Below are positions 35,079 to 50,374 of a stretch of DNA of 64,000 nt, piece by piece (the stretch's first letter is position 1; each line of letters opens with the position of its first letter). The notes beneath the pieces are model-generated. The model saw only the letters and a list, made by a program, of their open reading frames with translations. It was not told where the DNA came from and did no database searches. The position numbers were made by a program, and so were the translations under genes. Source of the DNA: an uncultured delta proteobacterium (GTDB taxonomy: Bacteria; Desulfobacterota; Deferrimicrobia; Deferrimicrobiales; Deferrimicrobiaceae); contig CAVXEY010000005.1 of the NCBI GenBank assembly GCA_963760885.1, forward strand, positions 8,641-72,640. Reading direction: 5' to 3'.

Positions 35079-35264
35079 GGGAGGATATTCTCCCGCCTTC
35101 TCTGTTCCCGCTGTCGCGAGCGTTTGTTAAAGACCGTAACAAAAACGAGTCCGCTTAATATCGCCAACTATTTGAGACGTCTCGCAAACCGTCACCCCTT
35201 AGCATTGACCACATCCAACGCTTGATCCTCACCCTACCCCCCACCGCCTGTTACACTTCTCCAT

Positions 35265-35808
35265 ATGATGGTACTCGGTCCTCGTGTCTTGGACGGATTA
35301 ATCGTCCTTCTCTGTCTTGTCTACTTGTCTCTCGCGACACCCGTCTCCGCAGCCAGCATCCTTGAAGGCTCCGTAGTCAAGATTGCCGACGACGACACGA
35401 TCACCGTCCTCGACTCCGACTAGGTGAAGCACAGAGTTCGCATAGCAGGGATCGACGCTCCAGAGAAGAAACAGCCATTCGGCAACGCTTCCAGGAAGGG
35501 GATGAGCGAGTTGGTGGCAGGTAAACAGTGCAAGTCGAGTTCACGAAGTACGACCGCTACGGGCGCATCGTTGGCAAGGTGCTGGTTAGGCCGCCCGACT
35601 GTCCCACATGCGGAAAGACGCTGGACGTTGGCCTTGCGCAGATCACAATGGGCATGGCGTGGTGGTACCGGAAGTACGCACACGAGCAATCGCCCGAGGA
35701 CCAGGGACGATATGAGATCGCGGAGCAGGAAGCGAAGGCGAAGAGGGCGGGTTGTGGCAGGACAAGAACCCGCAGCAACCGTGGGAGTTCAGGAAGGGAA
35801 CACGATGA
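35265..35808 (+). pseudogene. staphylococcal-nuclease-like (thermonuclease) gene, decayed
   Basis: Signal peptide plus ...VVKIADDDTITVLDSD, then an in-frame TAG (35420-22). VRIAGIDAPEKKQPFG..., ...VEFTKYDRYGRIVGKV..., and the C-terminus LWQDKNPQQPWEFRKG lie in three different frames. Confidence 0.8.
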
Positions 35809-36058
35809 ACATAAAAGTCGGGATCATCGAGGATGTGTATCCGGATTAGCAATTGATCCCTCTACCGACGCCTGGGCCTTCAAGGGTTAAATTCTGTGCC
35901 GTCTTTTCATGTTCCATCCGGTTGAGAAAACCCGGGAGGGGGAGCCGAAGCCCCCATTCCCTTTGACGGGAGTGCTTCACACTGTCAAACAACATTTGCC
36001 TTCATTAAATCTATTCGATATGGTTGGTGCATAGCATCCCGCTGCGAACCTCCTGCCG

Positions 36059-36507
36059 ATGGAGGTCCCTCCCGTGAAAAGACTTTCTTTCCTTCTCCTC
36101 GCCGGATTACTCATCGGTTGCGCTGGGAGGGGCGGGGGGGGTGGAAGCGAGAGTGGTGGAGGGGGGGGGTCTCAGACATCACCCCACCTGCTATTTCCTC
36201 CACTAGCCCCACTAACGGTGCGACCGGGATTGCGGTCAATGCCGCCATCTCGGTGACCTTCAGAGAGCCGATGACCGCCGCGACGATTACGCGGGCGACC
36301 TTTTCGGTCAAGACCGGTTCCACTGATGTCCCGGGAACCGTCGACTACAGTGGCACCACGGCAACCTTCACCCCGACCGGCAACTTGGTGTACTCAACGA
36401 CCTACACCGCGACGGTTACCACGGCAGCGAAGGATCTGGCGGGAAACGCCCTCGCGAGTAACTACGTCTGGAACTTCACCACCGGAACCGCACCGGAGGA
36501 ACCATGA
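36059..36507 (+). CDS. lipoprotein with bacterial Ig-like domain, frame broken in poly-G tract
   Basis: Signal/lipobox (LLAGLLIGC) is in the frame of ORF 36059..36256. The Ig-like domain (ISSTSPTNGATGIAVNAAISVTF...) is in the frame of ORF 36118..36507. G8 tract at 36134-41 and G9 tract at 36161-69. Confidence 0.7.
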
Positions 36508-38318
36508 GAAGGGTTGCTTTCTTCCAATTACTTTCATTATTTCTCATATCCCTTCTTTCAGCTTGTGGTGGTGGAAGCGAGAGTATTGGAGGGCGAGGCG
36601 GGACCGCACCGGTCGCGAAAACACCTGACAGCCACATAATATCTTTCATGCTTCCTCAAGATATAAAAAAGGAAGACATTCGGTACGCTGATGAAGCGCT
36701 CAAAGATCGTTTACATAAAATGGTAATAAGAAAGTTAGAGTCAAAAGTGAAGTTGCCAGAGGAGTCTGAAGAGGATAGACATGTCGATTATATTATTGTG
36801 TTTACCGATCAATCAGGCAATCCTATTCTACCAGACTTGGAGAAAGCAAGAAGCCGCGTTGGAGTCAGAGACCTCGCTCCCCTTGCTGCCAATGAATTAT
36901 CATTCTCCTTCAATTCCCCTGTTTACCCTTGGAGTAGCGAAGAACTGGTTGTTTTGAATACGGTCTTGAGTGATTTTTATACCACCGCAAAGGCGATATA
37001 TGGTAATCCCGCTTTTAATATTAACGTCAACGTAAGGAAAGATCCAAATATTGGGTATGCAGGAATATATTATCCAAGTATTAACGAGATGGTTGTATCT
37101 GATTTTAGTATCGATCATACTGATCCACTTTGCCATGAAATGATTCATGCTTTTCGAGATGACGATATTATATATCTTAATAGTTTTGAAGAAGGAATGA
37201 CCCGGGCTGCTGAGATTGAAGTCTTTAATCGTCTACCAAATTATGAATATTCGGGGGAGAGAAATCACAGTTATACATATGATGTTTTTTATGAAGGTCT
37301 TAACAAAATTACTATTGGATCTAAGAATGGGAACTTTTCTAATGGTTACCAAACTCCCTTATTGTTACGCTATCAATTAACAGGTTATGCATGGGCTAAG
37401 GCCTTACTTGAAAACTCTAACTTTATGATAAATTTCAATAATGAGCTATATGCAAGAATTATTTCCGATCCGTCTACGAATTATACGGAATCTAAGTTAC
37501 TAACAATAGCAGAAACTGTAATGCCCAGTGTGGAGGGAGAACCATTTTTGGCATGGTATAGCAAACAAGGAGTACTTAATACAAACCCACCATATGGGTA
37601 TTTCATATATCAGAGAATAAACCAATTTGATATAGACTTTTTTTATAGAGACACCTACGGAAACGAGACAGCGCAAACCAATGCAACAATCAATTGGTCT
37701 GTCTATGACTATAAAGATGAACTTCTCGATAGCGGTACTGGTATAACTACATCTTATGGATGGGTTTCTTCCTCACCTAATCTACCCATCGGTTACACAG
37801 GTCGCATTAAAATAGTTGCTTCTGCATCTACGCCAGATGGCATCATTACAGATACATCATTTAGAACTGCGGAAGGTGGGCTATGGGGAGATGAACTGGG
37901 GGTATTTGGAGTTGTATCCAATTCTACATCAGGAACATTAACCCTAGCCCCTTTAGATCCCATTAGCACCCCCATAATTGTTCCTGTTATAAATGGGGGA
38001 TTCTCTGCGCCTTCGCTCGAAAATATCAAGGGGAGGATACGTGCTTCCTTTGTGGAACCCTCTGGAGCTGTTATTTCAAGGATCTTCACAAAAGATGCCA
38101 GCAATTATTTTCTCTCCCTCGAGGCGACATCGGTTTCCCTTCCCGCAGCCCCCGCTAACCTGTCGGCTGCTGCGGCCTCGTCCTCCCAGATCAACCTGAC
38201 GTGGACGGATCAGTCCAGCAACGAAACCGGCTTCCAGATCGAGCGGAAGACCGGGGCAGGCGGAACATACGCGCAGATCGGGACAGTAGCCGCCAACGCA
38301 ACGTGCCTACAGCGATAG
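36504..38318 (+). CDS. lipoprotein with HExxH metallopeptidase-like motif and C-terminal FN3 repeat; probably truncated by frameshift
   Basis: Lipobox LSAC. LCHEMIHAF. Low-GC core (~36.6-38.1 kb) between GC-rich ends. Ends inside an FN3 unit. Confidence 0.7.
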   Translation: MRRVAFFQLLSLFLISLLSACGGGSESIGGRGGTAPVAKTPDSHIISFMLPQDIKKEDIRYADEALKDRLHKMVIRKLESKVKLPEESEEDRHVDYIIVFTDQSGNPILPDLEKARSRVGVRDLAPLAANELSFSFNSPVYPWSSEELVVLNTVLSDFYTTAKAIYGNPAFNINVNVRKDPNIGYAGIYYPSINEMVVSDFSIDHTDPLCHEMIHAFRDDDIIYLNSFEEGMTRAAEIEVFNRLPNYEYSGERNHSYTYDVFYEGLNKITIGSKNGNFSNGYQTPLLLRYQLTGYAWAKALLENSNFMINFNNELYARIISDPSTNYTESKLLTIAETVMPSVEGEPFLAWYSKQGVLNTNPPYGYFIYQRINQFDIDFFYRDTYGNETAQTNATINWSVYDYKDELLDSGTGITTSYGWVSSSPNLPIGYTGRIKIVASASTPDGIITDTSFRTAEGGLWGDELGVFGVVSNSTSGTLTLAPLDPISTPIIVPVINGGFSAPSLENIKGRIRASFVEPSGAVISRIFTKDASNYFLSLEATSVSLPAAPANLSAAAASSSQINLTWTDQSSNETGFQIERKTGAGGTYAQIGTVAANATCLQR

Positions 38319-39446
38319 CGGGCGGGTGGAAGGGACGGCGTACTTCTACCGGGTGAGGGCGGTCAACGGCGCCGGGAACTCGGCGTACTCCAACGAGGCG
38401 AGCGCGACGACATCGGCTTGCTCTTCCCGCAGCCCCCGCTAATCTATCCGCCACAGCGGTCTCGGTCGTCGCAGATCAACCTGACTTGGACGGATCAGTC
38501 CAGCCAACGAAACGGGCTTCCAGATCGAGCGGAAGACCGGGGCGGGCGGGACGTACGCCCTGATCGTGACGGCAGCCGCCAACGCAACGGCCTACAGCGA
38601 TACCGGGCGTGCGGAAGGGACGACGTACTTCTATCGGGTGCGGGCGGTCAACGGTGCCGGGAACTCGGCGTACTCCAACGAAGCGAGCGCGACGACGACA
38701 TCTCGGTTTCTCCTCCCGCGGCCCCCGCCATCCTGTCCGCCGCAGCGGTCTCGTCCTCCCAGATCAATCTCACCTGGACGGATCAATCTGATAACGAGGA
38801 CGGGTTCCGGGTCTATCGCGGGACGGACTCCTCGACCGTTACAACCCTCATGGCCACCCTTGGTGTGGGGATCACGAGTTACTCGAATACCGACCTCGCT
38901 GCCTCGACGACCTACTACTACAAGGTAACGACGTTCAACACCGCAGGAGAGTCCGCTGCATCGAACGTTGCCAACGCGACGACCGAACCTCCTCCTGTGA
39001 CCATACCTTTCGCACCCACGAACCTCCAAGCGACCGCCGCATCAAGTTCCGTCATCAACTTGACCTGGAACGATGCCTCCGCCAACGAGACGGGCTTCCA
39101 GATCGAGCGGAAGACCGGTGCGGGCGGGACGTACGCCCTGATCGTCACGACAGCCGCCAACGCAACGGCGTACAGCGACAGCGGGCTTGCGGAAGGGACG
39201 GCGTACTTCTACCGGGTGAGGGCGGTCAACGGGGCCGGGAACTCGGCGTACTCCAACGAGGCGAGCGCGACGACGCCATCCTCCGGAACAGGTGGCGGAA
39301 GCAGCGGTGGTGGCGGTGGCGGCGGATGTTCAATCTCACCTGAAGGGAAATCAAAAGGTGAATCGCCATTGGGAACAATGTTGACCCTATTTTTACCTGG
39401 GATCATTTTGGTTGTGCGAAAGGCAATATACAGGAAGCAAATCTAA
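38305..39446 (+). pseudogene. frameshifted continuation: FN3 repeats plus C-terminal Gly-rich/Cys/TM/basic sorting-like tail
   Basis: The FN3 reading passes through frames 1,2,0,1,0 between 38305 and ~38700. From there an intact ORF runs to 39446, ending GGGGGGGCS...LFLPGIILVVRKAIYRKQI. Confidence 0.65.
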
Positions 39447-39475
39447 CTGTAGGCGATGGGGGAATCGGCATTATG

Positions 39476-39510
39476 AAGGGCGGGGCCGCAAACCCCGCCC
39501 TTTCTGTTTC
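39476..39510 (+). terminator. rho-independent terminator
   Basis: GGGCGGGG-CCGCAAA-CCCCGCCC then TTTCTGTTT. Confidence 0.65.
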
Positions 39511-39595
39511 GATCGTCTTGAGCGTGACCTGCATCCGTTTCGCGAGATCGTAGGGCCGCAAGCATTATCGTCGGTGGACTAAAACGTCGCCCTTT

Positions 39596-40396
39596 TCATC
39601 TGCTGCCTGCCGGCTTCGGTATCGCCGGTTTCGATAGGAAGTCCTTCGCCTTCTTATGCACTCTGTCGAGCAAGGTTTGCTCGTATTCATCGCTGCCGGC
39701 CCCCCCGAATCGCGGGCGAATCATCGGAAGGTCCTTCGGGAACGGCCTTTCGCCCCTAATTTCAGAATAAGAATTGATGTCAGGGATGCCGGCCTTCATC
39801 TGTTCGATCTTTTCCCCGTCCAGGCTCGGATCAAGTTTCATTCGTTCCAGTTCCTTGATCGCGTCCATGCAATACCGCAAAGCGGCGTTGACCGCGTCGT
39901 AATTGCTTTCCACTTTCGTCTTTATTTTTTCGGTAAAAATATTTTTTTCGGCGCCCCGACGATTTATAGAAGTTCGGCCTGGCGCCCGAAGCCAGGTCAA
40001 TTTTTCCGTGAAAAACAGAATCGCTTCATTCAGCGCGGGATCGGCGCTTTTAAGCAAAGTTTCTTCCTGCCCGCTGATTGCATGGTCGAAAGATTGGCTT
40101 CTACTCGACAGCGTGAACCTTGCCGCATTATATTCGCCTCCGGCGGCGTCCAGCGCGGCCTTCGCCATTTTGAAATTTTCTTCCTTCGCGTCCCGGTCCG
40201 CCAGCAGTTCCGGGAGGACTTCTTCCCGTTCCTTCTTCAAGGCCCCGATCTTTTCGGCGGCTTCCGTCCGCGTTGCCAGGACCGCGGCAGCCTTTTCCGC
40301 GCGGAGTTGCTTCACGATTGGAGAATCCTCGGCCTCTTTCAACAGCGCCTCCAATTTTTCTTCCTTTTTCGCGGTCGCTTCTTTCATGCTCGCCAT
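39596..40396 (-). CDS. hypothetical coiled-coil protein (island module)
   Basis: Start set to ATG 40396 (AGGAGG RBS). Last gene of a long - strand gene string. Confidence 0.55.
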   Translation of the reverse strand: MASMKEATAKKEEKLEALLKEAEDSPIVKQLRAEKAAAVLATRTEAAEKIGALKKEREEVLPELLADRDAKEENFKMAKAALDAAGGEYNAARFTLSSRSQSFDHAISGQEETLLKSADPALNEAILFFTEKLTWLRAPGRTSINRRGAEKNIFTEKIKTKVESNYDAVNAALRYCMDAIKELERMKLDPSLDGEKIEQMKAGIPDINSYSEIRGERPFPKDLPMIRPRFGGAGSDEYEQTLLDRVHKKAKDFLSKPAIPKPAGSR

Positions 40397-40427
40397 AATT
40401 CCTCCTTTATGTTTTTCGTCTTGCCGC

Positions 40428-40943
40428 TCAACGAAGCATTTCTGGCTCGTACGCATACGGCGGGAGCGCCTTCCGCTCCGCAGCCGAAAGGAGTCCGTGA
40501 CGGTCGAGGTACGATGCCTCGGACTCGAACCGGGGCAGGTCCTCGGGGTCGATCCCCTCCAGCGAGTCCGGGAGTCCGAGGGTGTAGTACGGCAGGATCG
40601 CCGGGTACTCCTCCCACGGCGGAGCGCCAGTCCCGCCGATCTGCTTCCTGGGCTCCACCATCTCGGGGAGGTGCCACTCCGGGATCCCGGGGACCTTCGC
40701 CTTCGGTGCGTCGTGCTTCCACCATCCCCAGGGCCTCGTTCCGGGATGTTCCTCTACCCACGCGGGGAGGAGCTCATCCCGAAGGCTCTCCCAGGCGGAG
40801 CGGACGGTTTCCTTCTCGCAGGTGAGGGCGAAGATTTCCCACCAGGAGTCCTCCTCCTTCGGCTGCTCGCCCGTGAGGAGGTATTCGCTCACCACCGCGG
40901 AGTACACTGCACGCATCCCCAATCTTTTCTTCACGGTCGGCAT
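40428..40943 (-). CDS. hypothetical protein (island module)
   Basis: 171-aa ORF overlapping the terS stop by 13 nt. Confidence 0.55.
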   Translation of the reverse strand: MPTVKKRLGMRAVYSAVVSEYLLTGEQPKEEDSWWEIFALTCEKETVRSAWESLRDELLPAWVEEHPGTRPWGWWKHDAPKAKVPGIPEWHLPEMVEPRKQIGGTGAPPWEEYPAILPYYTLGLPDSLEGIDPEDLPRFESEASYLDRHGLLSAAERKALPPYAYEPEMLR

Positions 40944-41281
40944 TGTTTGCCTCCATATCCGAGGCGGGGAGGACGAACATCGTCCGGCGTCTCGCTCAAA
41001 TTCAATTCACGGATCAGGCGGGCGAAGATCACCTTGTTCTTCTCTTCCACCGCCACCTCGGGGCGAAGTTTCGGCCCGAACCGCCCCTCGCACGTCAGCC
41101 CGTTTTTCTTAATCAGCGCCCGGGCTTCTTCCGCACGATCCCAGGAGGTCGCGGCCATCTCCAAGAGCTTCAGGTGGTGCGCCTCCATCTCGTACCGGTC
41201 CACCACGGCCGCGTACCACCTCTTCGTCGACGTCCGGAGGTGCGCAGGAGCGTGGAGCTTGCCGTTACCGTTGTTCGTCAT
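40931..41281 (-). CDS. phage terminase small subunit, P27 family
   Basis: 116 aa. Pattern W..VV..YE......LL...A..WDR.EEAR..I...G......RFG.K..PEV... Confidence 0.7.
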   Translation of the reverse strand: MTNNGNGKLHAPAHLRTSTKRWYAAVVDRYEMEAHHLKLLEMAATSWDRAEEARALIKKNGLTCEGRFGPKLRPEVAVEEKNKVIFARLIRELNLSETPDDVRPPRLGYGGKQCRP

Positions 41282-41411
41282 CTATAACCCCCTGTACTGC
41301 ATTGACGGGATACGACGCCAGACAGAGATGAGAGCCCGGTCGGTGAACAGGCCTCATTGGTAGAGGCTGAGGCCGCCCCCCGTATCTCCTTCCATAGCAA
41401 GGGCTTACAGT

Positions 41412-41792
41412 TCATCCTCTCCCCCAACGTTCGCCCTTGTGGTGCTCCTCATGGTGCGCGGTGCATAAACTTTCATGGTTCACGTCCAGGTTATTCAACT
41501 CATTCCCATCCTTGTGGTGCACGAGCACAGCCGCAACCGTCTTCCCTTGCGCCAAGCACCGCTCGCACAACGGATCGGCGACCAGCTTCATCTGACGCAC
41601 CGCCCGCCACGTCCGAGTATGCAAGAGCCGCCGACCTGCATCCTTGTCACGCTCACCGTCGTATGCTCTGGTCTGCTGCTTCATGTACGGCAGGCACTCG
41701 GGACAGCATCGCTCGCCGCGTGCTATAAGGCCCGGGCATCTTCCGGCACGCGGTCCCTTGCCAGGGCATGGATGACGCGGCGCTACCGGCAT
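41412..41792 (-). CDS. phage-type HNH endonuclease
   Basis: Start set to ATG 41792 (AAGGAGAA RBS). C..C...C..C and VHHKDGNELNN...SLCTAHHEEHH. Confidence 0.75.
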   Translation of the reverse strand: MPVAPRHPCPGKGPRAGRCPGLIARGERCCPECLPYMKQQTRAYDGERDKDAGRRLLHTRTWRAVRQMKLVADPLCERCLAQGKTVAAVLVHHKDGNELNNLDVNHESLCTAHHEEHHKGERWGRG

Positions 41793-41956
41793 ACGTTCTC
41801 CTTCGCCTTTGCGTCCTTCTTCTGAATTTCGATGGCATTTCCCTCGCGTAATCTCGCGTAAGAAAATTGGCATCGCGCCTTCTCACACTCGGCGAGGGTT
41901 GCGAGGTCGAGGTAAATACATTCCAACTCACAGCAGGCTATGTATTCGTCGGTCAA
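41783..41956 (-). CDS. small Cys-rich protein conserved between the two islands
   Basis: TTG start, 57 aa. CIYLDLATLAECEKARCQFSYARL aligns with AIYLEVNSLKECEKARCPWTYARR encoded at 48115..48294. Confidence 0.5.
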   Translation of the reverse strand: MTDEYIACCELECIYLDLATLAECEKARCQFSYARLREGNAIEIQKKDAKAKENVCR

Positions 41957-42150
41957 TGGGTCGCCTCGCTTTCGAAGGAATGGAAGAGTGCTTCGTCTTC
42001 GGCCCAAGGGTAGATTTCGGGGAGATTGTTGCGTCGAATTGAGGTCGCCGCATCTTTGAACCTTGAATTTAGGGTCCGAACCTTTTTTTTTTCCCCTTCT
42101 TCGATCCACACCCCATGACAGAATCTATAGATATGGACTTTTCTGACCAT
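41953..42150 (-). CDS. hypothetical small protein
   Basis: 65-aa ORF. Its stop overlaps the next start by 4 nt, but it overlaps the 3' end of 42069..42773 by 82 nt. Confidence 0.3.
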   Translation of the reverse strand: MVRKVHIYRFCHGVWIEEGEKKKVRTLNSRFKDAATSIRRNNLPEIYPWAEDEALFHSFESEATH

Positions 42151-42773
42151 TGAAGGTGTGAGGAATCGGGCGCTTCCCGTGGACTTATCTGTCCACTATT
42201 GAGTGCATCGGCGAGTGCATAGTGGACATCCCTGACCATTGGTAGTGGACATTTTTGACCACCCTTTTTGATCTTCTGATTTCGCTGTTTCTCTTGGAAA
42301 GTTTTGGAGGCGAACCCCTCCTCGTAGGACTCCGGGAAAGGGGTCTCCTTCCAGTCGGGGGTGTCGTAAAGCTGCCATCGGTCTGATAAGGCGTACTTTG
42401 TAAACTCACCTCTCCTTCCGCGTCCCTGCTGGGCTATGTCGATGAACCCGAGTCGATGTAGCTTCCTCACGACTCGGTGGAATGTTCGGGGAAGCACTCC
42501 CCGCCACTCCGCCTGCTGGAACGTAAAACTGATTTCCCCGTTGTTTGTTATTTTGTCGATTCTGCCGATGGGAGAGTCTGTTCCGGGTTTCCGCTTCTTC
42601 TTTTCGTACTTCGCTTCCTCCCAGAACCAGGCGAGGCACTTCACCTCCGCGCCGGTTGTCAGCATCGCAAACGGTTTGCTATCGAGCATCCGATTCGGCA
42701 AGCCGGTGAACCCGTTGCTCGCCTGAAGTCGGAATTGCAGCCATTCCTTCTTCTTTGCGTCCCGATCTTTCAC
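42069..42773 (-). CDS. putative replication initiator-like DNA-binding protein
   Basis: 234 aa. Position between excisionase and packaging genes. Iteron array lies within/next to its 3' end. No motif recognised with certainty. Confidence 0.4.
   Translation of the reverse strand: MKDRDAKKKEWLQFRLQASNGFTGLPNRMLDSKPFAMLTTGAEVKCLAWFWEEAKYEKKKRKPGTDSPIGRIDKITNNGEISFTFQQAEWRGVLPRTFHRVVRKLHRLGFIDIAQQGRGRRGEFTKYALSDRWQLYDTPDWKETPFPESYEEGFASKTFQEKQRNQKIKKGGQKCPLPMVRDVHYALADALNSGQISPREAPDSSHLQWSEKSISIDSVMGCGSKKGKKKRFGP
42133..42262 (+). repeat. four ~18-bp iteron-like direct repeats
   Basis: ATGGACTTTTCTGACCAT (42133), GTGGACTTATCTGTCCAC (42179), GTGGACATCCCTGACCAT (42222), GTGGACATTTTTGACCAC (42245). 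Confidence 0.75.
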
Positions 42774-43147
42774 GCCCCGCCCCCTTGTACTCCGGAGGTG
42801 GTGATCGTCGATCCTGCGGCCTCGGATGGTGAGTTTTGACCCGTGCCGAACCTATATTTTCGACCGGCCTCGGCCAGCTTCGCCTTGCGTTCGGGTGAGA
42901 GGGTCCGTTTCTTCGCCAGGGGATTGATCCCGAGGCGGAAGGGGTGAATGTGGCAGACGGTCCCGTCGAGGAGTTTCCCGGAGCACTCGCGGGGGTGATC
43001 GTCCCCGTTGCACTCGCGACAATGGGATTTAATCTTCAGAAGAGGACGCCCCGCGAGATTCAGGGAGCACGCCTTCGACTCGCAGCGGAAGACCTGGCCG
43101 CCTTTGCATCGGCGACACTCGGCCTTGACCGCCTGTGCGGTTGTCAT
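42770..43147 (-). CDS. Cys-rich (zinc-binding-like) hypothetical protein
   Basis: Start set to ATG 43147. CRRCKGG...C.SKAC...CRECNG...C...C..H. Confidence 0.5.
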   Translation of the reverse strand: MTTAQAVKAECRRCKGGQVFRCESKACSLNLAGRPLLKIKSHCRECNGDDHPRECSGKLLDGTVCHIHPFRLGINPLAKKRTLSPERKAKLAEAGRKYRFGTGQNSPSEAAGSTITTSGVQGGGA

Positions 43148-43350
43148 CCTGCCCGCCGTGCCGGGTCCGTGATATGCGAATTGATGAAGTCGCGGAGCTG
43201 GTCTGCCGGGTAGAAAACGCGGCCGCCAAGTTTGCATATCGGTGGCCCCTCGCCGCGGGATCGTTCGTTAGCGAGGTGATTGACTGTCACCCTCCGGATT
43301 GCTGCCGCCTCTCGCGGTTTCAGTAATTCGGGAAACTTGCTATCCGCCAT
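43144..43350 (-). CDS. excisionase/AlpA-type helix-turn-helix protein
   Basis: Start set to ATG 43350 (GGAGGG RBS). LLKPREAAAIRRVTVNHLANERSRGEGPPICKLGGRVFY. Confidence 0.7.
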   Translation of the reverse strand: MADSKFPELLKPREAAAIRRVTVNHLANERSRGEGPPICKLGGRVFYPADQLRDFINSHITDPARRAG

Positions 43351-43490
43351 CTGCACCCTCCTTGCGTCATTGTCTGAGCATAAGGGTAGCAGAAAATAAG
43401 CGTAAGTCATTGTTTTTGTTGATGTAATCAGGTATCAGGCGGGCTTTGGCAACCCGTGTTTACGCGGTTTCCGACCTTTGGCAACCTATT

Positions 43491-44096
43491 TCATTTCGAG
43501 CGGTCTTCCCCCTTCCTTATGGTGTCGTAAATGAGGGCTCCGGCTTTTGCGTCCGAGATCAATTCACGTTCGTCGATATGGGACGACAGGTGTTTTCCTA
43601 TCGCTTCGCGGATCGTGAGTTGTCTCCGCGTCGTCGCCGCCTGGTACTCCTCGCGATAGTTCTCCGTGTAGATTTCCCATATCCGCTTCCGCACTATGTC
43701 CTTTCCCTTTCCCTTCTGCTTCCCCTTCCGATTGAAGGACACCTTTCCCGTCTTGGGACTTACCCGGCAGCCGAGGGCTGACACCTTCTTTTCGATCTGC
43801 CCCGCTCCTACCGCGAGCCGGAGGATGTAACCGCCGAGTTCATTCAAGGTCGCAGCGAATCGCTTTCGGTCCTCCTCGTCCATCGGAAGGTCACGATTGA
43901 CGATCGCAGCGGCCCTTATGATTTCACCCTTCGCCACTAATTGGTCATATGTTCCGTAAACTGTCAGCGCGGGGATGCACTCCCACAATAAATTTTCCGG
44001 ATCGCCTTTCCATTCCAATCCTGCAAGCATCATCGCCAGGAATGCGTGTTGTCTTCGAGGATGATCGGTGAAGGAAACCTTGTCTTTCGCCATCAT
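43491..44096 (-). CDS. hypothetical protein co-transcribed with integrase
   Basis: 201 aa. ATGA overlap with the integrase stop. Confidence 0.55.
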   Translation of the reverse strand: MMAKDKVSFTDHPRRQHAFLAMMLAGLEWKGDPENLLWECIPALTVYGTYDQLVAKGEIIRAAAIVNRDLPMDEEDRKRFAATLNELGGYILRLAVGAGQIEKKVSALGCRVSPKTGKVSFNRKGKQKGKGKDIVRKRIWEIYTENYREEYQAATTRRQLTIREAIGKHLSSHIDERELISDAKAGALIYDTIRKGEDRSK

Positions 44097-45319
44097 GCAC
44101 CTCCCGCCGTTTCTTTCGCCTCCTTCACTATCCGGCTCATTACATCCGATCCGCGTTTCAGCGCCGCATCGGTCAAGTGCGCGTACCGTTGCGTCATCGT
44201 CGGGCTTTTGTGCGTCAGGAGTCGCTGCAAAGTGTAGAGGTCCACTTCACCGGATGATGCGAGCATGGACGCGAAGACGTGCCGGAGCCCGTGCATCGGC
44301 CGGAAATCTTTCGGGAGCTTCGCTGCCTCGCGGATCGCGCGAAGATTCTTCGATGCGTCGGCTTTCGGGCGGTACTCCTTCGAACCGTCCTTCTTCCGGA
44401 TGACTCGGCCCGGAAAGATATAGGGGCAATCCTTCCGGCGGGGACGATGCTCCAGGAGTTCGCGTGCTTCTTCGGGAAGCGGAATCGTTTGATCCGTCCC
44501 GCCTTTCGGTTCGCGCAGCGTGATAAAGCCGCGCCGGAAGTCCACGTCCTCCCATGTCAGCCGGAAGATTTCCCCGCGGCGCATCCCGGTATAGATCGCC
44601 ATGAGCATGATTTCCCGCGCGTCGGGGTCGAGTGTCGTTTTCGTTCCGTCCTTCTCCGTTACGGTTCCGTCGTGTAGGATCCCCAGGAGCCGCGCCATTT
44701 GCCCCGCGTTTAAGTCCTCCGTTTTTAAGTTGTTCACCTTCGGCATGGTCACGCGGAAGGGGAGGGGATCGCACAGTCGCTTGTTCGCCGCGAAGTTCGA
44801 CAGCCGCCGGAGGAGTTCGAGGACGTTTTTCACCGTCCCCGCTTTCAGTTTCTTCGACAGTTTCATCCGGAGCCGGTCCACGTCGAGGGGGACTATCTCA
44901 CGCGGTTCCTTGTCGCCGAAGGTAGGGGAGAGGTGTTTCGTGAAGTTCGTTTCATCGGTCGCACTTCGCTTCGCCTCCGGCTTCCCCGCCTGGTATTCAT
45001 TCCACAACTTGTCGAAGGTCCACCGCTCCGCGATGGCCTTTTTCTCGGCCCGCTCCGCTTCGCGCCGCTCGCGGTTCGGGAGTACCCGTCCTTTGATTTT
45101 GTCGGAGCGTATGCCCGCGGCGACGGCCTCCGTGATCTTATCCCCGTCCTCCGTCCTGTCGCCCTCGCGCCCGATCTTCTCGAAGTGTTGTTTCCCTGCC
45201 CGGCGATACGAGACATAGAAGATCCGTTGCGGATCGCCCAGGGGATCGGTTCCGAGGATGACGTAGACGCCGGGGTACTTCGTCCGGATCGGGGAGAAGC
45301 TGCGTTTCCGCTCTACCAT
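44093..45319 (-). CDS. tyrosine integrase (family distinct from the other two)
   Basis: 408 aa. AIYTGMRRGE, HGLRHVFASML, LLTHKSPTMTQRYAH. 190 bp from attR. Confidence 0.9.
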   Translation of the reverse strand: MVERKRSFSPIRTKYPGVYVILGTDPLGDPQRIFYVSYRRAGKQHFEKIGREGDRTEDGDKITEAVAAGIRSDKIKGRVLPNRERREAERAEKKAIAERWTFDKLWNEYQAGKPEAKRSATDETNFTKHLSPTFGDKEPREIVPLDVDRLRMKLSKKLKAGTVKNVLELLRRLSNFAANKRLCDPLPFRVTMPKVNNLKTEDLNAGQMARLLGILHDGTVTEKDGTKTTLDPDAREIMLMAIYTGMRRGEIFRLTWEDVDFRRGFITLREPKGGTDQTIPLPEEARELLEHRPRRKDCPYIFPGRVIRKKDGSKEYRPKADASKNLRAIREAAKLPKDFRPMHGLRHVFASMLASSGEVDLYTLQRLLTHKSPTMTQRYAHLTDAALKRGSDVMSRIVKEAKETAGGA

Positions 45320-45353
45320 CTCGCCCTCCTTCGGGCTTTAACCCGAAAATCCA

Positions 45354-45373
45354 CTCATAACAGCACTCATAAC
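45354..45373 (+). repeat. two CTCATAAC boxes spaced 12 bp (right island end)
   Basis: aCTCATAACagcaCTCATAACa. Confidence 0.8.
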
Positions 45374-45508
45374 AGCGACGGGATAATTATAACCGATGAT
45401 ACCCCGTTACCGTCAAACGTTATTTCACGTTATTATTTAGTATATTCGGGAGGGTACTACTTCAAGGAGACGTTATGTCTGATGATGGGAAAAGGGCCTG
45501 TTTTCATT

Positions 45509-45554
45509 CTCATAACCCGAAGGTCCCAGGTTCAAATCCTGGCCCCGCTACCAA
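45509..45554 (+). repeat. attR-type copy: displaced 3' half of tRNA-fMet
   Basis: 46/46 identical to 29232-29277. No 5' half is present. Confidence 0.9.
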
Positions 45555-45650: not shown

Positions 45651-46793
45651 TTATCCGGCATTACCAACGCCCATTTTCTGAGGCGGTGGGTTTCCACCCC
45701 CCGAAATCGCCGGCGGAGTGGGGAACGGGAGTACACCACCCGCTTCCTCGAACCCTTTCAGGAACCGCGTGCCGTCGCGCCGCATCCGGTTCCGGATGAA
45801 CTTCCCGTAGTGCCGGAAGATCATGTCGAGCGTGGTGTGCCCGAGCATCCGGGCCACCCACAAAGGGTCCTCGCCGTGGGAGAGCATCAGGGACGCGAAG
45901 GTGTGGCGCGTCTGGTACATCGTGCGCTTGCGGAGTTTCGCGCTCTGCATCGCCGGGTACCAGACCTTGTTCCGCAGGTTGTTGACCTCCATCGGGTTGC
46001 CTTTCCTGCCCGTGAAGACGTGGGTTGCGTCTTCCGGTGAAGCGAGTCGGTGCTGACGCAGTACCTCGTAGAGGGGATCGAGCATGTCGATGTCCCGGTA
46101 CGAGGAGAGGGTCTTGGGCGGCCCCTCGAACCCCTGCACGCGTCCCTCCCGGATCGTGATGCAACGCATCTCGAAGTCGACGTGGAGCCACTTCAGCGCC
46201 AGCATCTCGTTGGGCCGCATCCCGGTCAAGAACGCCGTGGTGAAGTAAGGGACGTGGTGCGGGTCGACGTGCGCCAGGAACGCCTTCATCTCCGGGAAGG
46301 AGAAGGGGTCGATGAACGGCCTGTCCTCCTTGAACCGGCGGATGAGCTCGGTCGGGTTGTTCTTGATGTCTCCCCGGCGCTTGGCGTCGTTGAACAGGCA
46401 CTTCACCGGGACCATGATGTTGTTCTTGCGCTTGGCGGAGAGCGGTCCCAGGGTTTCCAGGAAATCCTCCATATCCCGGTGGGTGACCTGGCACAGCGGG
46501 GTTTTCCCGAAGTGGGGCAGGGCGTACACCTTCATGATCGAGGCGTAGTCCCCGTATGTCGACCTCGAAACGGTCACCTTCTTCCTCTCCAGCCAGCTGG
46601 CCGCGTACTCGGAGAAGGGGGTCTTGGCGGCCTCGAAGATCCCGAGGTACTCCTGCCGCTCGATCTTGACCAGCAGGTCCCTCTCCACCATGAGAGCGGT
46701 TTTCTTGGAGCGGCCAACGCGCCTGCGGACACGCCGGCCTCTTGCGTCCCGAACGTCTACGTAGTACGTGTTTCCTCGTGTGTAGATGCTCAC
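45651..46793 (-). CDS. tyrosine integrase (full-length paralogue of 26762..27787)
   Basis: 380 aa. N-terminal arm-type domain IYTRGNTYYVDV..., C-terminal YQTRHTFASLML...ARMLGH...HYGKF. Confidence 0.9.
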   Translation of the reverse strand: MSIYTRGNTYYVDVRDARGRRVRRRVGRSKKTALMVERDLLVKIERQEYLGIFEAAKTPFSEYAASWLERKKVTVSRSTYGDYASIMKVYALPHFGKTPLCQVTHRDMEDFLETLGPLSAKRKNNIMVPVKCLFNDAKRRGDIKNNPTELIRRFKEDRPFIDPFSFPEMKAFLAHVDPHHVPYFTTAFLTGMRPNEMLALKWLHVDFEMRCITIREGRVQGFEGPPKTLSSYRDIDMLDPLYEVLRQHRLASPEDATHVFTGRKGNPMEVNNLRNKVWYPAMQSAKLRKRTMYQTRHTFASLMLSHGEDPLWVARMLGHTTLDMIFRHYGKFIRNRMRRDGTRFLKGFEEAGGVLPFPTPPAISGGGNPPPQKMGVGNAG

Positions 46794-46923
46794 GTTTGGC
46801 CTCCTCAGGGCCTCGTGGGCACGCTTTGGACACAGGTTGAGGGGGAGTGGTACCTCCTTGGAATGAGGTTGTGAAGGACTACCCCCATTATGGCGTCTTC
46901 CCCCGCACCTATGTCAACGAGGA

Positions 46924-47241
46924 TCAACGTCTCTCCCGCAGAATCCGGCTGGCAAACTCCGATGGGGTGGTCTGGCACGTCGCCACACAGCGGTCCACCC
47001 ACGCGGCGATGTCGGACTCCCGGAACCGGACGGCCCCGCGGAACTTGATGTGCGGGATGTACCCGATGTGGGTCCAATAGCGGATCGTAGATTCCTTAAC
47101 ATTCAGGTGACGGGCCACCTCGTTGGAATTCCATAACGAACAACTCAATGTGGCACCCCCTTGCCCGGAAGATGATTCCGTCGGTGCCGTCGCGGCGGAA
47201 TATTGTTGAAGGAGCGACCGCGGTACGTTGGGTCCTCTCAT
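46924..47241 (-). CDS. excisionase-family helix-turn-helix protein
   Basis: NEVARHLNVKESTIRYWTHIGYIPHIKFRGAVRFRESDIAAWV. ATGA overlap with the upstream gene. Confidence 0.7.
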   Translation of the reverse strand: MRGPNVPRSLLQQYSAATAPTESSSGQGGATLSCSLWNSNEVARHLNVKESTIRYWTHIGYIPHIKFRGAVRFRESDIAAWVDRCVATCQTTPSEFASRILRERR

Positions 47242-47678
47242 GCAGGAGTTCCTCCTTTCGATTCGTCCAAAGCGTTGAGTACGGCCCGGATTAGCCGCGT
47301 CGGTAATGTCTCCGGGGTCGGATCGGAAATGATCGTTGCAGGAAGATTGAGTAACTTGCGTTCCAGATCAAGCCGTGCGCAGATGGCCGCCTTGATGAGC
47401 CCCGGTTCGCCTTGCGCGTCCTTCGGCATCTCGTTCGCCATTCGGATTCTCCGTTTGAGGTCGAGCTGCCGCTGAGCGAGGTTTTCTAAAAGATCCGGAA
47501 AGTCGTGAAATGCGGGATCGTTCCCGGCCCCTGCCTGCGCGAGGTCGCGGCGAGCGCGCCATCCCGCCACAAGAGCGGGATCGCCTCCTTTATTAGTGAT
47601 AGGAGCGCCCCGCCGCTGCCAATCGTTTATCGTCGGACGGGAAACATCGAAGTATTCAGCTATTTGGCACTTATTCAT
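47238..47678 (-). CDS. Nu1-like phage small terminase / DNA-packaging HTH protein
   Basis: N-terminus MNKCQIAEYFDVSRPTINDWQRRGAPI resembles lambda Nu1 as remembered. Confidence 0.55.
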   Translation of the reverse strand: MNKCQIAEYFDVSRPTINDWQRRGAPITNKGGDPALVAGWRARRDLAQAGAGNDPAFHDFPDLLENLAQRQLDLKRRIRMANEMPKDAQGEPGLIKAAICARLDLERKLLNLPATIISDPTPETLPTRLIRAVLNALDESKGGTPA

Positions 47679-47819
47679 CTTTTGCTCCTCCGTTTCCCTT
47701 GTAATAACAGGGAGTTCGAAAAACAGTGTCTCTGGCTGAATATCGGGGTCCGAAGGGTACCCGCGGAGATCTCGTCAGGAAGGACCCGATAATTTCGTTA
47801 GTCCAGGTTGCACAGCACA

Positions 47820-48065
47820 TTATGGCCTTGGGGGCAGCTTCGCCTGAGCGTCCTCAAATTTCTGCCTCCAATGTTCCCGCTGCCGCTTGGTTAGGTGTTC
47901 TCTGTTCGCGCTCCGCTCGTAATACCGGACGACCAGGGCGTGACGGTCCCATTCCCTCCGGGCGAATTCCAAACTTCGCCGGCAGGAAACGGAACAATGC
48001 AACCGGTTCGGGCGGCCCTCGAAAGACTTGCCGCAGTTCCCACAGATCAAGGTTACGTTGGGCAT
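47820..48065 (-). CDS. zinc-ribbon hypothetical protein
   Basis: 81 aa. CGNCGKSF...HCSVSC. Confidence 0.5.
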   Translation of the reverse strand: MPNVTLICGNCGKSFEGRPNRLHCSVSCRRSLEFARREWDRHALVVRYYERSANREHLTKRQREHWRQKFEDAQAKLPPRP

Positions 48066-48114
48066 GGAACCTCCACAGATCTAGAATTCTTGAATTGCGG
48101 AAACGCGCATGTCA

Positions 48115-48294
48115 CTAGCCACACGGTTTTATGTCTTGAAGTTGGTAAGATTTGATTCCCCCCCCATTTGCTTCCTTCTCAACCCTTGCCGCCTGGTCTT
48201 CCTCCAACCTGCGGGCGTACGTCCACGGACAGCGTGCCTTCTCGCACTCCTTGAGACTATTAACCTCGAGGTAAATGGCATCCAAACTTCGCAC
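48115..48294 (-). CDS. small Cys-rich protein, homologue of 41783..41956 (below the ORF-track size cut-off)
   Basis: GTG start, 59 aa, translated by hand: VRSLDAIYLEVNSLKECEKARCPWTYARRLEEDQ... Confidence 0.5.
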   Translation of the reverse strand: MRSLDAIYLEVNSLKECEKARCPWTYARRLEEDQAARVEKEANGGGIKSYQLQDIKPCG

Positions 48295-48541
48295 TGGCGA
48301 AAGGATCGGGGGTCATAGGGTAGTCTCCCTCGGGGGAATGTACGGAATACGTTCCCCCCGTAGGGGGAAGGTGTCGGACACTCGGACATGATCGATTTCA
48401 TTGATCTTTTATCCGTCCGATATGGTAAACGGACAATACCGGGCCGGACATATCGCAAGTAAGCGTTATTTAAGGACAACGATGTGTACGTCCGGAGCTT
48501 ATGTCCGAGAGCGGACACTTCGGACGGAGTATGGTCCGCAA

Positions 48542-49714
48542 TCATTCCTGATTCCCTTTCAAGAAGTAGATGTTTCTCTTGCTGCCAGGTAATGTCGCAT
48601 GCCTAATCCTGCCGTCCCGCTCCGCCTTGAGAATGGCTTCCTTCGGTGTGGAGGAGGTGACGGAGCAGCCTGTACGCCGGGCAAGCGCCTCAATCATGGC
48701 CGTCCTACCCTCGACCCTGCCCCCGGCGTCGTCCAGAACCGCGACAACATCGTCAGAGGTGACGATCCGCTTCCCCACGTCGGTCATGGTGAATAGCGGG
48801 CCTTCCTTCGCCAGCTCCATGTCTTCGACGGGATCGTCGTGCCGAAGGTCGAATTTCAGAATAAACCGGTCAAGCGATTCGGCCTTCTTCCGCTGGAGGA
48901 CGAGAGCGGAGTCGGTGAATGCACCCCAGCCAGCGCCTCGGATCTCCGCGATCCCGCCGTCGACCGGCCCGGCCTTGCGGGTATGGTGGACGACGACCAC
49001 CGTCTTCCCGGCGGCCTTCAGCCTGTCGATAAAATCCTGTACCTCCCGGGCATCGGAGTGACTGTTCTCGTCGCCCCTGCTCTGGAAACGGAACGCGGGG
49101 TCGAAGATGACGATGTCCGCCGGCTCTGCCCACCTTGCTATCGCCTCCTGCGCCGCCGGCGTGTCGTACTTCACTCGGCCCAGGGTCGACAGGATTAAGA
49201 GGTTGTCCAGGTCCGCGTCTTCGACCCCGGGGAAGAAGGCGAGCGCCGTCTGGAATCTCTTCCGCAAAGTAGGGTCGCTTCCTTCGCCCCCCAGGTAGAG
49301 GACCTTCTTCCGCTCAACCACCGCAAAACCGAGGAAGGGCTTTCCGGTGACGATGCAGAGAGCCAGGAGGAGCGCGAGCCAGGTCTTCCCGACCTTCGGA
49401 GCCCCGGCAATCAGGAGAAGGGTCCCGGCGATGAGGATTCTTTCGACAATTGAAACAGGCGGAGGGGTCGCGTCGAGAAGGAGGTCGGTCGTGGTCCGGG
49501 GGCGCATCGTGTCCAGCGCGAGGATTTCCGCCGCTATTTGTGTTACCGAACGCTGTCCGCCGTTTCCGCCCGACCTTCTGACGGGAAGGGGGGATCCGGC
49601 CGCGTCGAGAGCTTCGATGAAATCCTCGTCGATCTCGTCGTCCCGGAGCTGCCGATCAGGAGGGTCGGGAAGCACGGCATCGGCGAAGATGGGATCGTCC
49701 ATCATCTCGGCCAC
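48542..49714 (-). CDS. RecA-fold ATPase of RepA/AAA_25 type (plasmid/phage replication helicase-like)
   Basis: Walker A GAPKVGKTW, Walker B DIVIFDP, VVVHHTRKAG. Confidence 0.75.
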   Translation of the reverse strand: MAEMMDDPIFADAVLPDPPDRQLRDDEIDEDFIEALDAAGSPLPVRRSGGNGGQRSVTQIAAEILALDTMRPRTTTDLLLDATPPPVSIVERILIAGTLLLIAGAPKVGKTWLALLLALCIVTGKPFLGFAVVERKKVLYLGGEGSDPTLRKRFQTALAFFPGVEDADLDNLLILSTLGRVKYDTPAAQEAIARWAEPADIVIFDPAFRFQSRGDENSHSDAREVQDFIDRLKAAGKTVVVVHHTRKAGPVDGGIAEIRGAGWGAFTDSALVLQRKKAESLDRFILKFDLRHDDPVEDMELAKEGPLFTMTDVGKRIVTSDDVVAVLDDAGGRVEGRTAMIEALARRTGCSVTSSTPKEAILKAERDGRIRHATLPGSKRNIYFLKGNQE

Positions 49715-49941
49715 TTCGGATTGCCCTTGTCGTCAAACGGAACAAAACAAGGAAGGTTGTCCAATTTATTGGTATACGCCGTGAACGAAATTATCTTGCT
49801 ATGAGGTCCGGGCGGCTCCTCCTGCTCGAGCGGTAACGGTGGTCGCGGTTGTATCTTCGTCCCCACCTCGATAACGGCCTCCATGAAATCGTCGTCAACC
49901 TGGTCCACCTTGGGGACGAGATGTAGACGGAGTCCGGTCAT
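49702..49941 (-). CDS. hypothetical protein
   Basis: 79-aa ORF. Overlapping stops and starts with both neighbours. Confidence 0.4.
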   Translation of the reverse strand: MTGLRLHLVPKVDQVDDDFMEAVIEVGTKIQPRPPLPLEQEEPPGPHSKIISFTAYTNKLDNLPCFVPFDDKGNPKWPR

Positions 49942-50135
49942 CTCGTTGTCCGCTTTCCCCGCTGCTCTTCGATGAAGGCGGCAAGATCCTCGGGATTAAT
50001 ACGAACGCTCGACCCGATGCGGACCATCTGGATCAGACAATCGCGGACGGCCTTGTATCCCATCGGAAGGGAATGTCCGAGCGTATCGACGAACGCTTGC
50101 CGAACCGTCAGGAGCTTTGGGAGGGGAGGGGTCAC
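49938..50135 (-). CDS. small helix-turn-helix (AlpA/excisionase-like) protein
   Basis: 65 aa. LLTVRQAF...VRINPEDLAAFIEE. 4-nt overlaps on both sides. Confidence 0.45.
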   Translation of the reverse strand: MTPPLPKLLTVRQAFVDTLGHSLPMGYKAVRDCLIQMVRIGSSVRINPEDLAAFIEEQRGKRTTR

Positions 50136-50374
50136 TTCGCCCGTGCCATCGCCTTGAGGGATTCCCGCCGCCCGCGTTCGAGCGGGGCGGTGACGGGATC
50201 GCGGGGGACTCTCGTTTCAGAGAGCGCGACCTCCGCTGCAAGCCGGACAAGGGCCGGATCACGTGACACCGCGACGAGGCGTGCCTCGTTCAATGTCTTC
50301 CCGGAATACAGGACTACGAAATCCATTTGGCCTCCCGATGGACCGTGCTGATACATATCCACGCGGGAAGGCAA
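50132..50374 (-). CDS. hypothetical protein
   Basis: 80-aa ORF, translationally coupled. Confidence 0.4.
   Translation of the reverse strand: MPSRVDMYQHGPSGGQMDFVVLYSGKTLNEARLVAVSRDPALVRLAAEVALSETRVPRDPVTAPLERGRRESLKAMARAK

Follow-up and report, generated by a model that had tools for sequence, protein, structure and literature searches.

A probable phage satellite at a tRNA-Met locus of an uncultured Deferrimicrobiaceae bacterium encodes a predicted free-standing N-terminal domain of the large terminase

We examined a stretch of 64,000 nucleotides of contig CAVXEY010000005.1 (hereafter the window) from an uncultured, sulfate-reducer-like bacterium of the family Deferrimicrobiaceae, in which an earlier note, made from the letters alone, had described a gene module at 39596-45319 resembling those of phage-inducible chromosomal islands (PICIs) and related satellites. 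The source of the element is a metagenome-assembled genome (MAG), and the core proteins of the window are at least 90% identical to MAG proteins named Candidatus Deferrimicrobium, Deferrimicrobiaceae or Thermodesulfobacteriota. Core genes with a GC content of about 0.68 occupy bases 1-27000, and the GC content drops and varies from a tRNA-Met gene (29200-29276) onward; that of the module is 0.55-0.60, compared with about 0.68 in the flanking core. All of the genes that the note had placed in the module were recovered at their positions on the minus strand, in one co-directional string. They are listed here together with the features that delimit the element; TerS and TerL are the small and large terminase subunits, and ORF stands for open reading frame.

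29200-29276, plus strand: tRNA-Met (CAT), the integration target (ARAGORN; Rfam RF00005, 63.8 bits)
29232-29277, plus strand: attL core, 46 nt, of which 45 nt are the 3' end of tRNA-Met (repeat search)
29342-29361, plus strand: CTCATAAC-N4-CTCATAAC pair just inside the left end, a candidate integrase-binding (arm/core-type) site
39596-40396, minus strand: p266, 266 aa; 36 homologues, none with a Pfam domain
40428-40943, minus strand: p171, 171 aa; no family match, homologue of the TerL N-terminal domain
40931-41281, minus strand: TerS of the P27 family, 116 aa; PF05119, TIGR01558 and phrog_83, all sub-threshold
41282-41411, minus strand: HNH-TerS spacer, 130 nt, where a cos site would be expected from its position, by analogy with the HK97-type order
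41412-41792, minus strand: HNH endonuclease, 126 aa, of a type linked to phage packaging; phrog_144 (8e-16) and eight other HNH PHROGs
41783-41926, minus strand: small Cys-containing ORF, about 47 aa, motif ...ECEKARC.F.YAR...; its stop overlaps the HNH start
42069-42773, minus strand: Rep234, 234-aa winged-helix protein, putative initiator; weak Cdc6_C winged-helix and lambda-O-like matches at about 1e-3, and a weak DnaD_N match
42134-42260, minus strand: four iterons GGWCA-N5-GTCCA at spacings of 46, 43 and 23 nt, located in the 3' third of the Rep234 gene, a putative replication origin
42770-43147, minus strand: Cys-rich protein, 125 aa; no family match
43144-43350, minus strand: HTH_17 protein, 68 aa, Xis/AlpA-like regulator or excisionase; PF12728 26.4 bits (cut-off 27), phrog_66 excisionase/regulator 4e-6
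43491-44093 or 44096, minus strand: p200, 200 or 201 aa, after the integrase; no family match
44093-45319, minus strand: tyrosine integrase, 408 aa; PF00589 3e-26, phrog_1 2e-51
45354-45373, plus strand: second CTCATAAC-N4-CTCATAAC pair, between the integrase start and attR (motif search)
45509-45554, plus strand: attR, the displaced 3' end of tRNA-Met, 46 nt identical to 29232-29277 (repeat search)

The att repeats proposed earlier are real. The two copies, at 29232-29277 and 45509-45554, are perfect over 46 nt, and no match of this kind is expected by chance in the window. The sequence CTCATAAC occurs six times in the window, where 0.9 copies would be expected by chance, and every copy lies either in one of the two att cores or in one of the two tandem pairs; within the att copies it stands at their start, which corresponds to the anticodon loop of the tRNA. 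Because both ends match in the 46-nt repeat and in the CTCATAAC pairs, the mobile unit is the whole of 29277-45554. The island is thus bounded by the att repeats, as the note had held, but its extent is 16.3 kb and not just the 5.7 kb of 39596-45319; the core module accounts for 5.9 kb of the 16.3 kb between the att copies. A division of the interval into two elements was considered and rejected, as no third att copy was found near 39.5 kb (allowing up to three mismatches in 25 nt) and the CTCATAAC pairs at both ends match.

The integrase shares 48-52% identity with the integrases of three related islands (L090, L092 and L094; see below), and p200, which follows it, is kept in some of these sister islands (39% identity to the 197-residue p197 of L094). 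The HTH_17 protein shows 60% identity to the HTH_17 gene of L090; it has no match to an AlpA-specific model, and its place and its size of 68 aa fit a PICI regulator. Exact 4-nt overlaps join the HTH_17 (xis), Cys-rich and Rep234 (rep) genes, so that the Cys-rich protein is predicted to be translationally coupled to both of its neighbours. The description of the string as having many 4-nt overlaps is borne out at these two junctions, but is somewhat overstated: the overlap of int and p200 is 1 or 4 nt, depending on the choice between two adjacent ATGs, and that of TerS and p171 is 13 nt.

The gene called rep-like in the note keeps this name by virtue of its position and its iterons, but not by membership of a family. 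The Rep234 family comprises 593 relatives and gives weak winged-helix signals only, and sequence and profile searches of the PDB with Rep234 and its family returned nothing significant. A homologue of 306 aa lies between HTH_17 and TerS in the sister island L110/L111, and the slot is taken in other sister islands by a PrimPol/AAA_25 protein or a D5 primase. It is because of this slot and of the iterons that we call Rep234 a putative replication initiator. The iterons are not a chance pattern: GGWCANNNNNGTCCA has four copies in the window against 0.33 expected, all of them on the minus strand within 42134-42260. The small ORF at 41783-41926 shows codon-wise conservation, with changes at third positions, when compared with 48115-48294 of the window and with L094:8727-8873, and the motif ...(L/V)..L.ECEKARC.(F/W).YAR... 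is found upstream of the packaging genes in both islands of the window (the second is described below) and in L094.

An HNH gene lies at the equivalent position in four other loci (L026, L037, L066 and L099). In HK97-type phages the order of this region is HNH-cos-TerS (Kala et al., 2014, cited in PMC10085698). The 116-aa protein that follows the spacer in our element had been called a P27-family TerS, subject to profile searches. On its own it falls below every curated cut-off (PF05119, 23.0 bits versus 24.7; TIGR01558, 18.3 versus 45.6; phrog_83, 3e-4), but P27-type TerS is its sole match in Pfam, PHROGs and NCBIfam. PF05119 is present in 23 of its 45 homologues (41-88% identity), and the source records of several give the name P27 terminase small subunit. 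Since so many homologues carry the domain, we accept the protein as a probable divergent TerS of the P27 family, a member by transitivity. Its C-terminal tail reads ...RPPRLGYGGKQCRP. The TerS had no match in 50,697 GenBank phage records, and a sequence and profile search of the PDB with its family gave nothing significant.

The next gene, p171, had been listed as a 171-aa protein of no assigned function, a description that no longer applies. Its relationship to TerL surfaced when an iterated TerL profile drifted onto the p171 family, after which TerLs were counted by their ATPase-nuclease core only. The linking sequence is a TerL ORF of 740 aa on an IMG/VR contig (L104/L105), in which Pfam places the TerL_ATPase domain at residues 260-433 and the TerL_nuclease domain at 440-726 (the families tested were PF03354 for the ATPase and PF20441 for the nuclease) and which is followed on the contig by a portal gene, a protease/scaffold gene and a major capsid protein (MCP) gene. 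Residues 14-159 of this TerL align with p171 (phmmer, 34.9 bits; hhalign, 98.5% with an E-value of 3.8e-15), and a hidden Markov model (HMM) of 34 p171 homologues finds it at 7.3e-14 among 7,498 ORFs. Two motifs, HPGTRPWxWW..DAP and FESE..YL.R.GL, fall within the alignment. The region equivalent to p171 is confined to residues 14-159 of the 740, and the ATPase and nuclease domains are absent from p171. By these comparisons p171 is a free-standing N-terminal domain of TerL.

Members of the p171 family are discrete ORFs of 110-280 aa with two conserved motifs and a C-terminal end that is conserved across phyla, and an ORF of this kind directly follows TerS in 25 of the 80 genomes surveyed below. 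The 13-nt overlap with TerS recurs in L007, L091 and L110. Because both the C-terminal end and the overlap are conserved, p171 would seem to be a maintained gene and not a stump. Its AlphaFold2 (AF2) model has a pLDDT of 91.7 and a pTM of 0.84, and a fold search with this model against the PDB and BFVD gave no match with E below 0.1; nor did p171 match any of the 50,697 phage records. In P22 the minimal TerS-binding domain of TerL lies within its first 58 residues, and in both lambda and P22 TerL is bound by the C-terminal region of TerS (PMC9611059). By analogy with these terminases, p171 may bind a TerS.

The last gene of the string, p266, belongs to a conserved family that was found only in such islands, after TerS and p171. 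In its AF2 model (pLDDT 84.7) a long helical region precedes a small alpha/beta domain. The model has no match among PDB folds with E below 0.1, and the protein had no match in the 50,697 phage records. The gene is replaced by an MCP gene in some sister islands, and the two are unrelated: the idea that p266 is a diverged capsid or delta domain was rejected after hhalign gave a probability of 0.4% against the MCP of L110. From its position alone we would guess at a further packaging or capsid accessory. Pfam and PHROGs identified no capsid, portal, TerL ATPase/nuclease, tail or lysis gene between the att copies, and the matches to 'tail' PHROGs are generic FN3 and RCC1 repeat matches in plus-strand, lipoprotein-like cargo genes. 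The statement that no structural genes lie between the att repeats therefore holds for family scans of the whole 29277-45554 interval.

Several related islands were compared with the element. L090/L091, with a TerS of 87% identity, encodes an integrase, an ORF6N protein, a 242-aa protein, HTH_17, a D5-type primase, TerS, p162, p255 and further genes of no assigned function; its far end carries AbiV-like and RNase T-like cargo, followed by tRNA genes. In L094/L095 the order is integrase, p197, HTH_17, PrimPol/AAA_25, TerS, proteins of 77 and 127 aa, p258, Neck1 (gp10-like) and a tape-measure protein (TMP), and in L092/L093 it is integrase, a 192-aa protein, HTH_17, PrimPol/AAA_25 and p219; the L092-L094 elements adjoin sequence similar to the same tRNA-Met att. 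L007-L009 (TerS 84% identical) shows TerS, p161, proteins of 88 and 80 aa and an MCP of the HK97 fold. L110/L111 has an integrase, a 289-aa protein, HTH_17, the 306-aa Rep234 homologue, TerS, p161, an 83-aa protein and an MCP, and L002 has AAA_25, TerS, an MCP and a serine recombinase. These comparisons show a common island plan in many phyla, consisting of an integrase, a protein of about 200-290 aa, HTH_17, a variable replicase, TerS and p171, followed by an MCP, by p266 or by Neck1 with TMP. The order of integrase, HTH_17, replicase, TerS and p171 recurs in distant lineages with intact, overlapping ORFs.

The distribution of the TerS was surveyed with one genome per GTDB species, which gave 80 loci with a TerS relative of 40-59% identity in Desulfobacterota, Planctomycetota, Gemmatimonadota, Acidobacteriota, Actinomycetota, Chloroflexota and many Alphaproteobacteria. 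Genes within about 10 kb of TerS were counted by means of Pfam-annotated seed proteins and iterated HMMs over all ORFs. A PrimPol/AAA_25-type replicase was present at 28 loci, a recombinase at 25, a tape measure at 19 and an MCP at 16, compared with a portal at three and the TerL ATPase-nuclease core at one (L075), the latter two counts being made from few seeds. When 38 large ORFs that lie downstream of TerS and were otherwise unclassified were scanned with Pfam, no terminase or portal family was present among 25 of the 31 families matched. Given the counts for TerL and portal, this clade of TerS appears to live almost entirely in small elements that lack TerL. We also note that in many Mesorhizobium, Bradyrhizobium and Ensifer genomes a tape-measure gene (PF20155) follows the TerS relative within 1-2 kb, with no TerL, portal or capsid gene in between; such Rhizobiales loci include L018, L026, L030, L034, L070, L074 and L078, among others.

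These data bear on the possibility that the locus is a cryptic remnant of an HK97-like prophage, in which a deletion has removed everything past the first ~170 codons of TerL and the rest is decaying and no longer mobile. In its favour, p171 is the N-terminal domain of a TerL and occupies exactly the place expected of TerL, following HNH and TerS, and MCP, portal, TMP or neck genes occur near TerS in some relatives. Had the module been the eroded end of a larger prophage, as the earlier note had considered, relatives with adjoining structural genes would be expected; some relatives do have one or two such genes beside TerS, an MCP in L007 and L110 and Neck1 with TMP in L094, but no relative with a full morphogenesis set was found, and 79 of the 80 TerS relatives have no TerL beside them. 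Moreover, p171 constitutes a discrete family of 110-280 aa in at least 25 of the 80 genomes, in several phyla and with 34 aligned metagenomic homologues, and its 13-nt overlap with TerS is kept in the window as well as in the three sister islands named above. Since both the family and the overlap are conserved, an old and selected domain fission explains p171 better than a recent break. All nine ORFs of the island are intact and coupled, the att repeats agree at all 46 nt, and the gene after p171 belongs to a conserved family specific to islands. We therefore regard a decaying remnant as unlikely.

PICIs are recognized by an integrase, a regulator and a replication module, by the lack of structural and lytic genes and by a size of about 12-15 kb (PMC6092414, PMC10085698); tail, holin, portal and connector genes are 'forbidden' (PMC10085698). 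The element has an integrase with an att site and a TerS, has no structural or lysis genes and, at 16.3 kb, is of comparable size. Its HTH_17 regulator falls just under the cut-off (26.4 versus 27), and its replication module offers four iterons and the weak matches of Rep234 with no primase or helicase. Among known systems, the element is closest to the PICIs of Gram-negative bacteria (EcCICFT073 type; Fillol-Salom et al., 2018, PMC6092414) and to the 'PICI Type B' of SatelliteFinder (de Sousa et al., 2023, PMC10085698). It shares with them a co-directional order that runs from the integrase through a putative AlpA-like HTH regulator and a putative replication module, with an origin that is adjacent or embedded, to packaging genes including terS and then accessory genes, as well as a tRNA-type att site, a size of about 12-16 kb, the lack of structural and lysis genes and a presumed cos-type helper. 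It differs from them in that a 234-aa winged-helix protein with iterons stands in place of the primase/helicase, in the possession of HNH, usually a gene of capsid-forming PICIs (cfPICIs) or phages, and in the free-standing TerL N-terminal domain and p266, neither of which has been described for PICIs. In addition, the phage records searched contain no close relative of any of its proteins. Its host belongs to an uncultured lineage of the Desulfobacterota, whereas Proteobacteria and Firmicutes together account for more than 99.9% of the PICIs of SatelliteFinder. The element may thus be described as PICI-like, with replication and packaging parts that appear to differ from those of known PICIs. 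The claim that satellites carry exactly this minimal gene set goes too far, since HNH is a core gene of cfPICIs and only occasional in PICIs (SatelliteFinder, PMC10085698).

Other known systems are more distant. The element shares with cfPICIs (10.1101/2022.09.08.507074, PMC10085698) an integrase, a putative regulator and a putative replicase at the left, with HNH and TerS opening an HK97-like packaging block, but the defining genes of cfPICIs are those for TerL, portal, protease/MCP and head-tail adaptor/connector, of which the element has just the N-terminal domain of TerL. The sister islands L007, L110 and L002 have an MCP but neither TerL nor portal and so are not cfPICIs. The psu-delta-sid operon, epsilon and the alpha primase-helicase of P4-like satellites have no PHROG or Pfam match in the element. 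With the HK97-type cos module, HNH-cos-TerS(P27)-TerL, it has in common an HNH directly upstream of a P27 TerS and a TerL-derived ORF as the next gene; it differs in lacking the TerL ATPase and nuclease, which means that it cannot cut or translocate DNA by itself, and its subfamily of TerS stands beside TerL in just one of the 80 loci. The phiRv1/phiRv2-like elements of Mycobacterium are small and integrative. They combine a recombinase and a primase-type replicase with a small terminase-like gene and a gene for the capsid, but have no full virion set. They are cited as PICI-like (PMC10085698) and, as far as a comparison by description allows, resemble sister islands such as L002; the island of the window differs from them in having a tyrosine integrase and no capsid or protease gene.

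The absence of structural genes could also be taken to indicate an integrative mobilizable element or integrated plasmid-like replicon that has nothing to do with phages and in which 'TerS' and 'HNH' have other roles, the more so as the TerS score is under all curated cut-offs and Rep234 with its iterons resembles the initiators of plasmids or theta replicons. Family scans revealed no relaxase, oriT-like feature, type IV secretion system or partition gene, however. Both by annotation and by score the TerS homologues are P27 terminases, and in sister islands they adjoin HK97-fold capsid, neck and tape-measure genes; p171 derives from TerL. A non-phage origin accordingly strikes us as highly improbable.

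In our view, the interval 29277-45554 is probably a PICI-like phage satellite in its integrated form, which would depend on a helper and redirect one of the cos type. This interpretation accords with the intact tyrosine integrase, next to which the att duplication is perfect over 46 nt, with the tandem CTCATAAC inside both ends, with the co-directional gene string, with the lack of structural, TerL motor and lysis genes and with the recurrence of the architecture in many other genomes. The satellite reading of the note has outlived both the check on TerS and that on an eroded prophage. In the life cycle that we envisage, a helper phage would trigger the HTH_17/AlpA-like protein, and Int would excise the element at the 46-nt core. 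Rep234 would bind the iterons, fire the origin and recruit the replication enzymes of the host. TerS would then recognize a cos site, probably in the 130-nt spacer between HNH and TerS, and HNH would help to cleave cos, as it does in HK97-type phages. The p171 protein, produced in step with TerS, would mimic the TerS-docking end of TerL and either couple the satellite TerS to the TerL motor of the helper or titrate the helper TerS, and the helper would supply the TerL motor, capsid and tail.

Small satellite proteins that engage the TerS or TerL of a helper in favour of satellite DNA are familiar from Staphylococcus aureus pathogenicity islands (SaPI Ppi), PICIs (Rpp) and PICI-like elements (PLE Gpi and GpsAB). 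The likeness of p171 to these proteins is one of concept. No description of a terminase-domain protein of the p171 kind in a satellite was found in the literature searched, and p171 would be the first satellite protein manipulating a helper terminase that is itself a terminase domain. We tentatively suggest, as a possibility rather than as the expected outcome, that p171 together with a satellite-specific P27 TerS constitutes an undescribed satellite strategy, acting as an adaptor to the helper motor or as a decoy, and that it marks a large multi-phylum class of hijacker islands that lack TerL.

A mimic of the docking domain of TerL would also be a natural inhibitor of TerS-TerL assembly, and the TerS, HNH, p171 and p266 genes could be mainly an anti-phage module that jams the packaging of cos phages, carried by an integrative island that is not itself transferred. 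Packaging interference by PICI proteins directed against phage TerS is an established theme, and PLE proteins are reported to act on TerL (10.1101/2024.04.22.590561). The locus is a probable hot spot with a methyltransferase/Vsr defence region nearby, and the HNH protein at the far end of the element has a weak match to a type IV restriction enzyme model. Against a purely defensive function, the island encodes an integrase and a putative regulator of its own, together with an initiator-like protein that has iterons and a DNA-recognizing TerS, a kit for excision, replication and specific packaging that a pure defence cassette would not need. PADLOC defence models gave no match to p171, p266, TerS or Rep234, nor to p200 or the Cys-rich protein. 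We consider such a function improbable as the main role of these genes.

Several observations nevertheless weigh against a helper-dependent satellite. Excision, helper dependence and packaging are all predicted from sequence, the window contains no helper phage and none is known for the element, and the cos site is a guess from position, by analogy. As single sequences, TerS, HTH_17 and Rep234 each fall under curated thresholds. The element lacks the primase or helicase that most sister islands encode and that belongs to the definition of PICIs. The empty tRNA-Met site was not recovered, the contigs of relatives breaking at this tRNA: the 1.88-Mb contig of a 98%-identical relative breaks at the tRNA-Met locus and a Logan contig stops inside the tRNA. 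Single structural genes in sister islands (MCP, TMP or Neck1) can also be read as stages of prophage decay, and divergent TerL or portal families could have escaped the seeds behind the counts of one and three in 80. Finally, as p171 is derived from TerL, it is likely to have arisen by truncation of a prophage TerL, even if this event was ancient.

Satellites shape gene transfer and phage resistance, and nearly all of those characterized come from a few cultured Proteobacteria and Firmicutes. The element and its relatives suggest that a PICI lifestyle is common in uncultured phyla of soil, sediment and groundwater, and the TerS subfamily and the p171 domain are simple markers for finding such elements. 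If the proposed class of TerL-less hijackers is real, present satellite finders, which are tuned to Proteobacteria and Firmicutes, would mostly miss it. p171 offers a concrete idea of how a satellite with TerS only engages a foreign packaging motor, and it could serve as a probe of the poorly understood contact between TerS and TerL in HK97-type terminases.

The remaining part of the element, between attL and p266, is cargo:

29278-39595, mixed strands: cargo part, about 10 kb, with a mosaic GC content of 0.37-0.65
29464-30219, minus strand: HNH with a C-terminal HTH_17 fusion, 251 aa, adjoining attL; PF01844 7e-8 and a weak PADLOC match to a type IV restriction enzyme (2e-7)
32049-35078, plus strand: RCC1-repeat, lipoprotein-like protein, 1009 aa, with thirteen 150-nt DNA repeats (32971-35092), large surface-type cargo
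36504-38318, plus strand: 604-aa protein of GC 0.37, large surface-type cargo
38418-39446, plus strand: FN3-repeat protein that includes a Gly-rich stretch and ends in a hydrophobic anchor, large surface-type cargo

The HNH and HTH_17 fusion is possibly a defence or homing gene. Several small cargo ORFs are flanked by a repeated element of about 35-60 nt with the core GGATTCACCCCGAGTGTATAACGNGGGGG and a short CCCC/GGGG hairpin. A repeat search located copies at 29447-29507, 30136-30281, 30702-30747 and 31826-32004, and the element recurs near sister islands of other metagenomes (L007:4786-4854 and L094:3187-3247). It has no match in Rfam, and its identification as an integron attC was rejected because the motif does not fit the R''/R' consensus.

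A second satellite-like island (45651-51633, minus strand) follows directly after attR:

45651-46793, minus strand: integrase
46924-47241, minus strand: HTH_17, 45 bits
47238-47678, minus strand: 146-aa protein whose N-terminal HTH is Nu1/TerS-like; matches phrog_57 (terminase small subunit) at 1.6e-6
48542-49714, minus strand: AAA_25 replicative-type ATPase

It also encodes an 81-aa protein and a 405-aa protein whose N-terminus matches a tail-assembly-chaperone PHROG (5.8e-9), and no att repeat was found for 45651-51633. A paralogue of its integrase lies on the opposite side of the tRNA-Met gene, at 26762-27787 (minus strand), with 70-77% nucleotide identity over two aligned stretches, and is followed at 27998-28889 by small toxin-antitoxin-like genes (an AbrB/PIN-like pair and a ribbon-helix-helix protein). 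This paralogue, the toxin-antitoxin-like genes and the breaks in the contigs of relatives suggest that the tRNA-Met locus is a variable hot spot.

Further downstream, a block of low GC content (0.33-0.49) at 53586-61504 resembles, by eye, a restriction-modification or defence island:

53586-61504: a 742-aa protein with apparently two C5 DNA methyltransferase modules, and proteins of 413 and 378 aa
57116-57502: Vsr-like endonuclease, 128 aa
within 53586-61504: 831-aa protein ending in a SEC-C-like CPCGSGKKYKKCC motif

Beyond this block, 62374-62983 encodes, to judge by the sequences themselves, a pair consisting of a toxin (93 aa, HigB/RelE-like) and an antitoxin (122 aa, HigA-like HTH).

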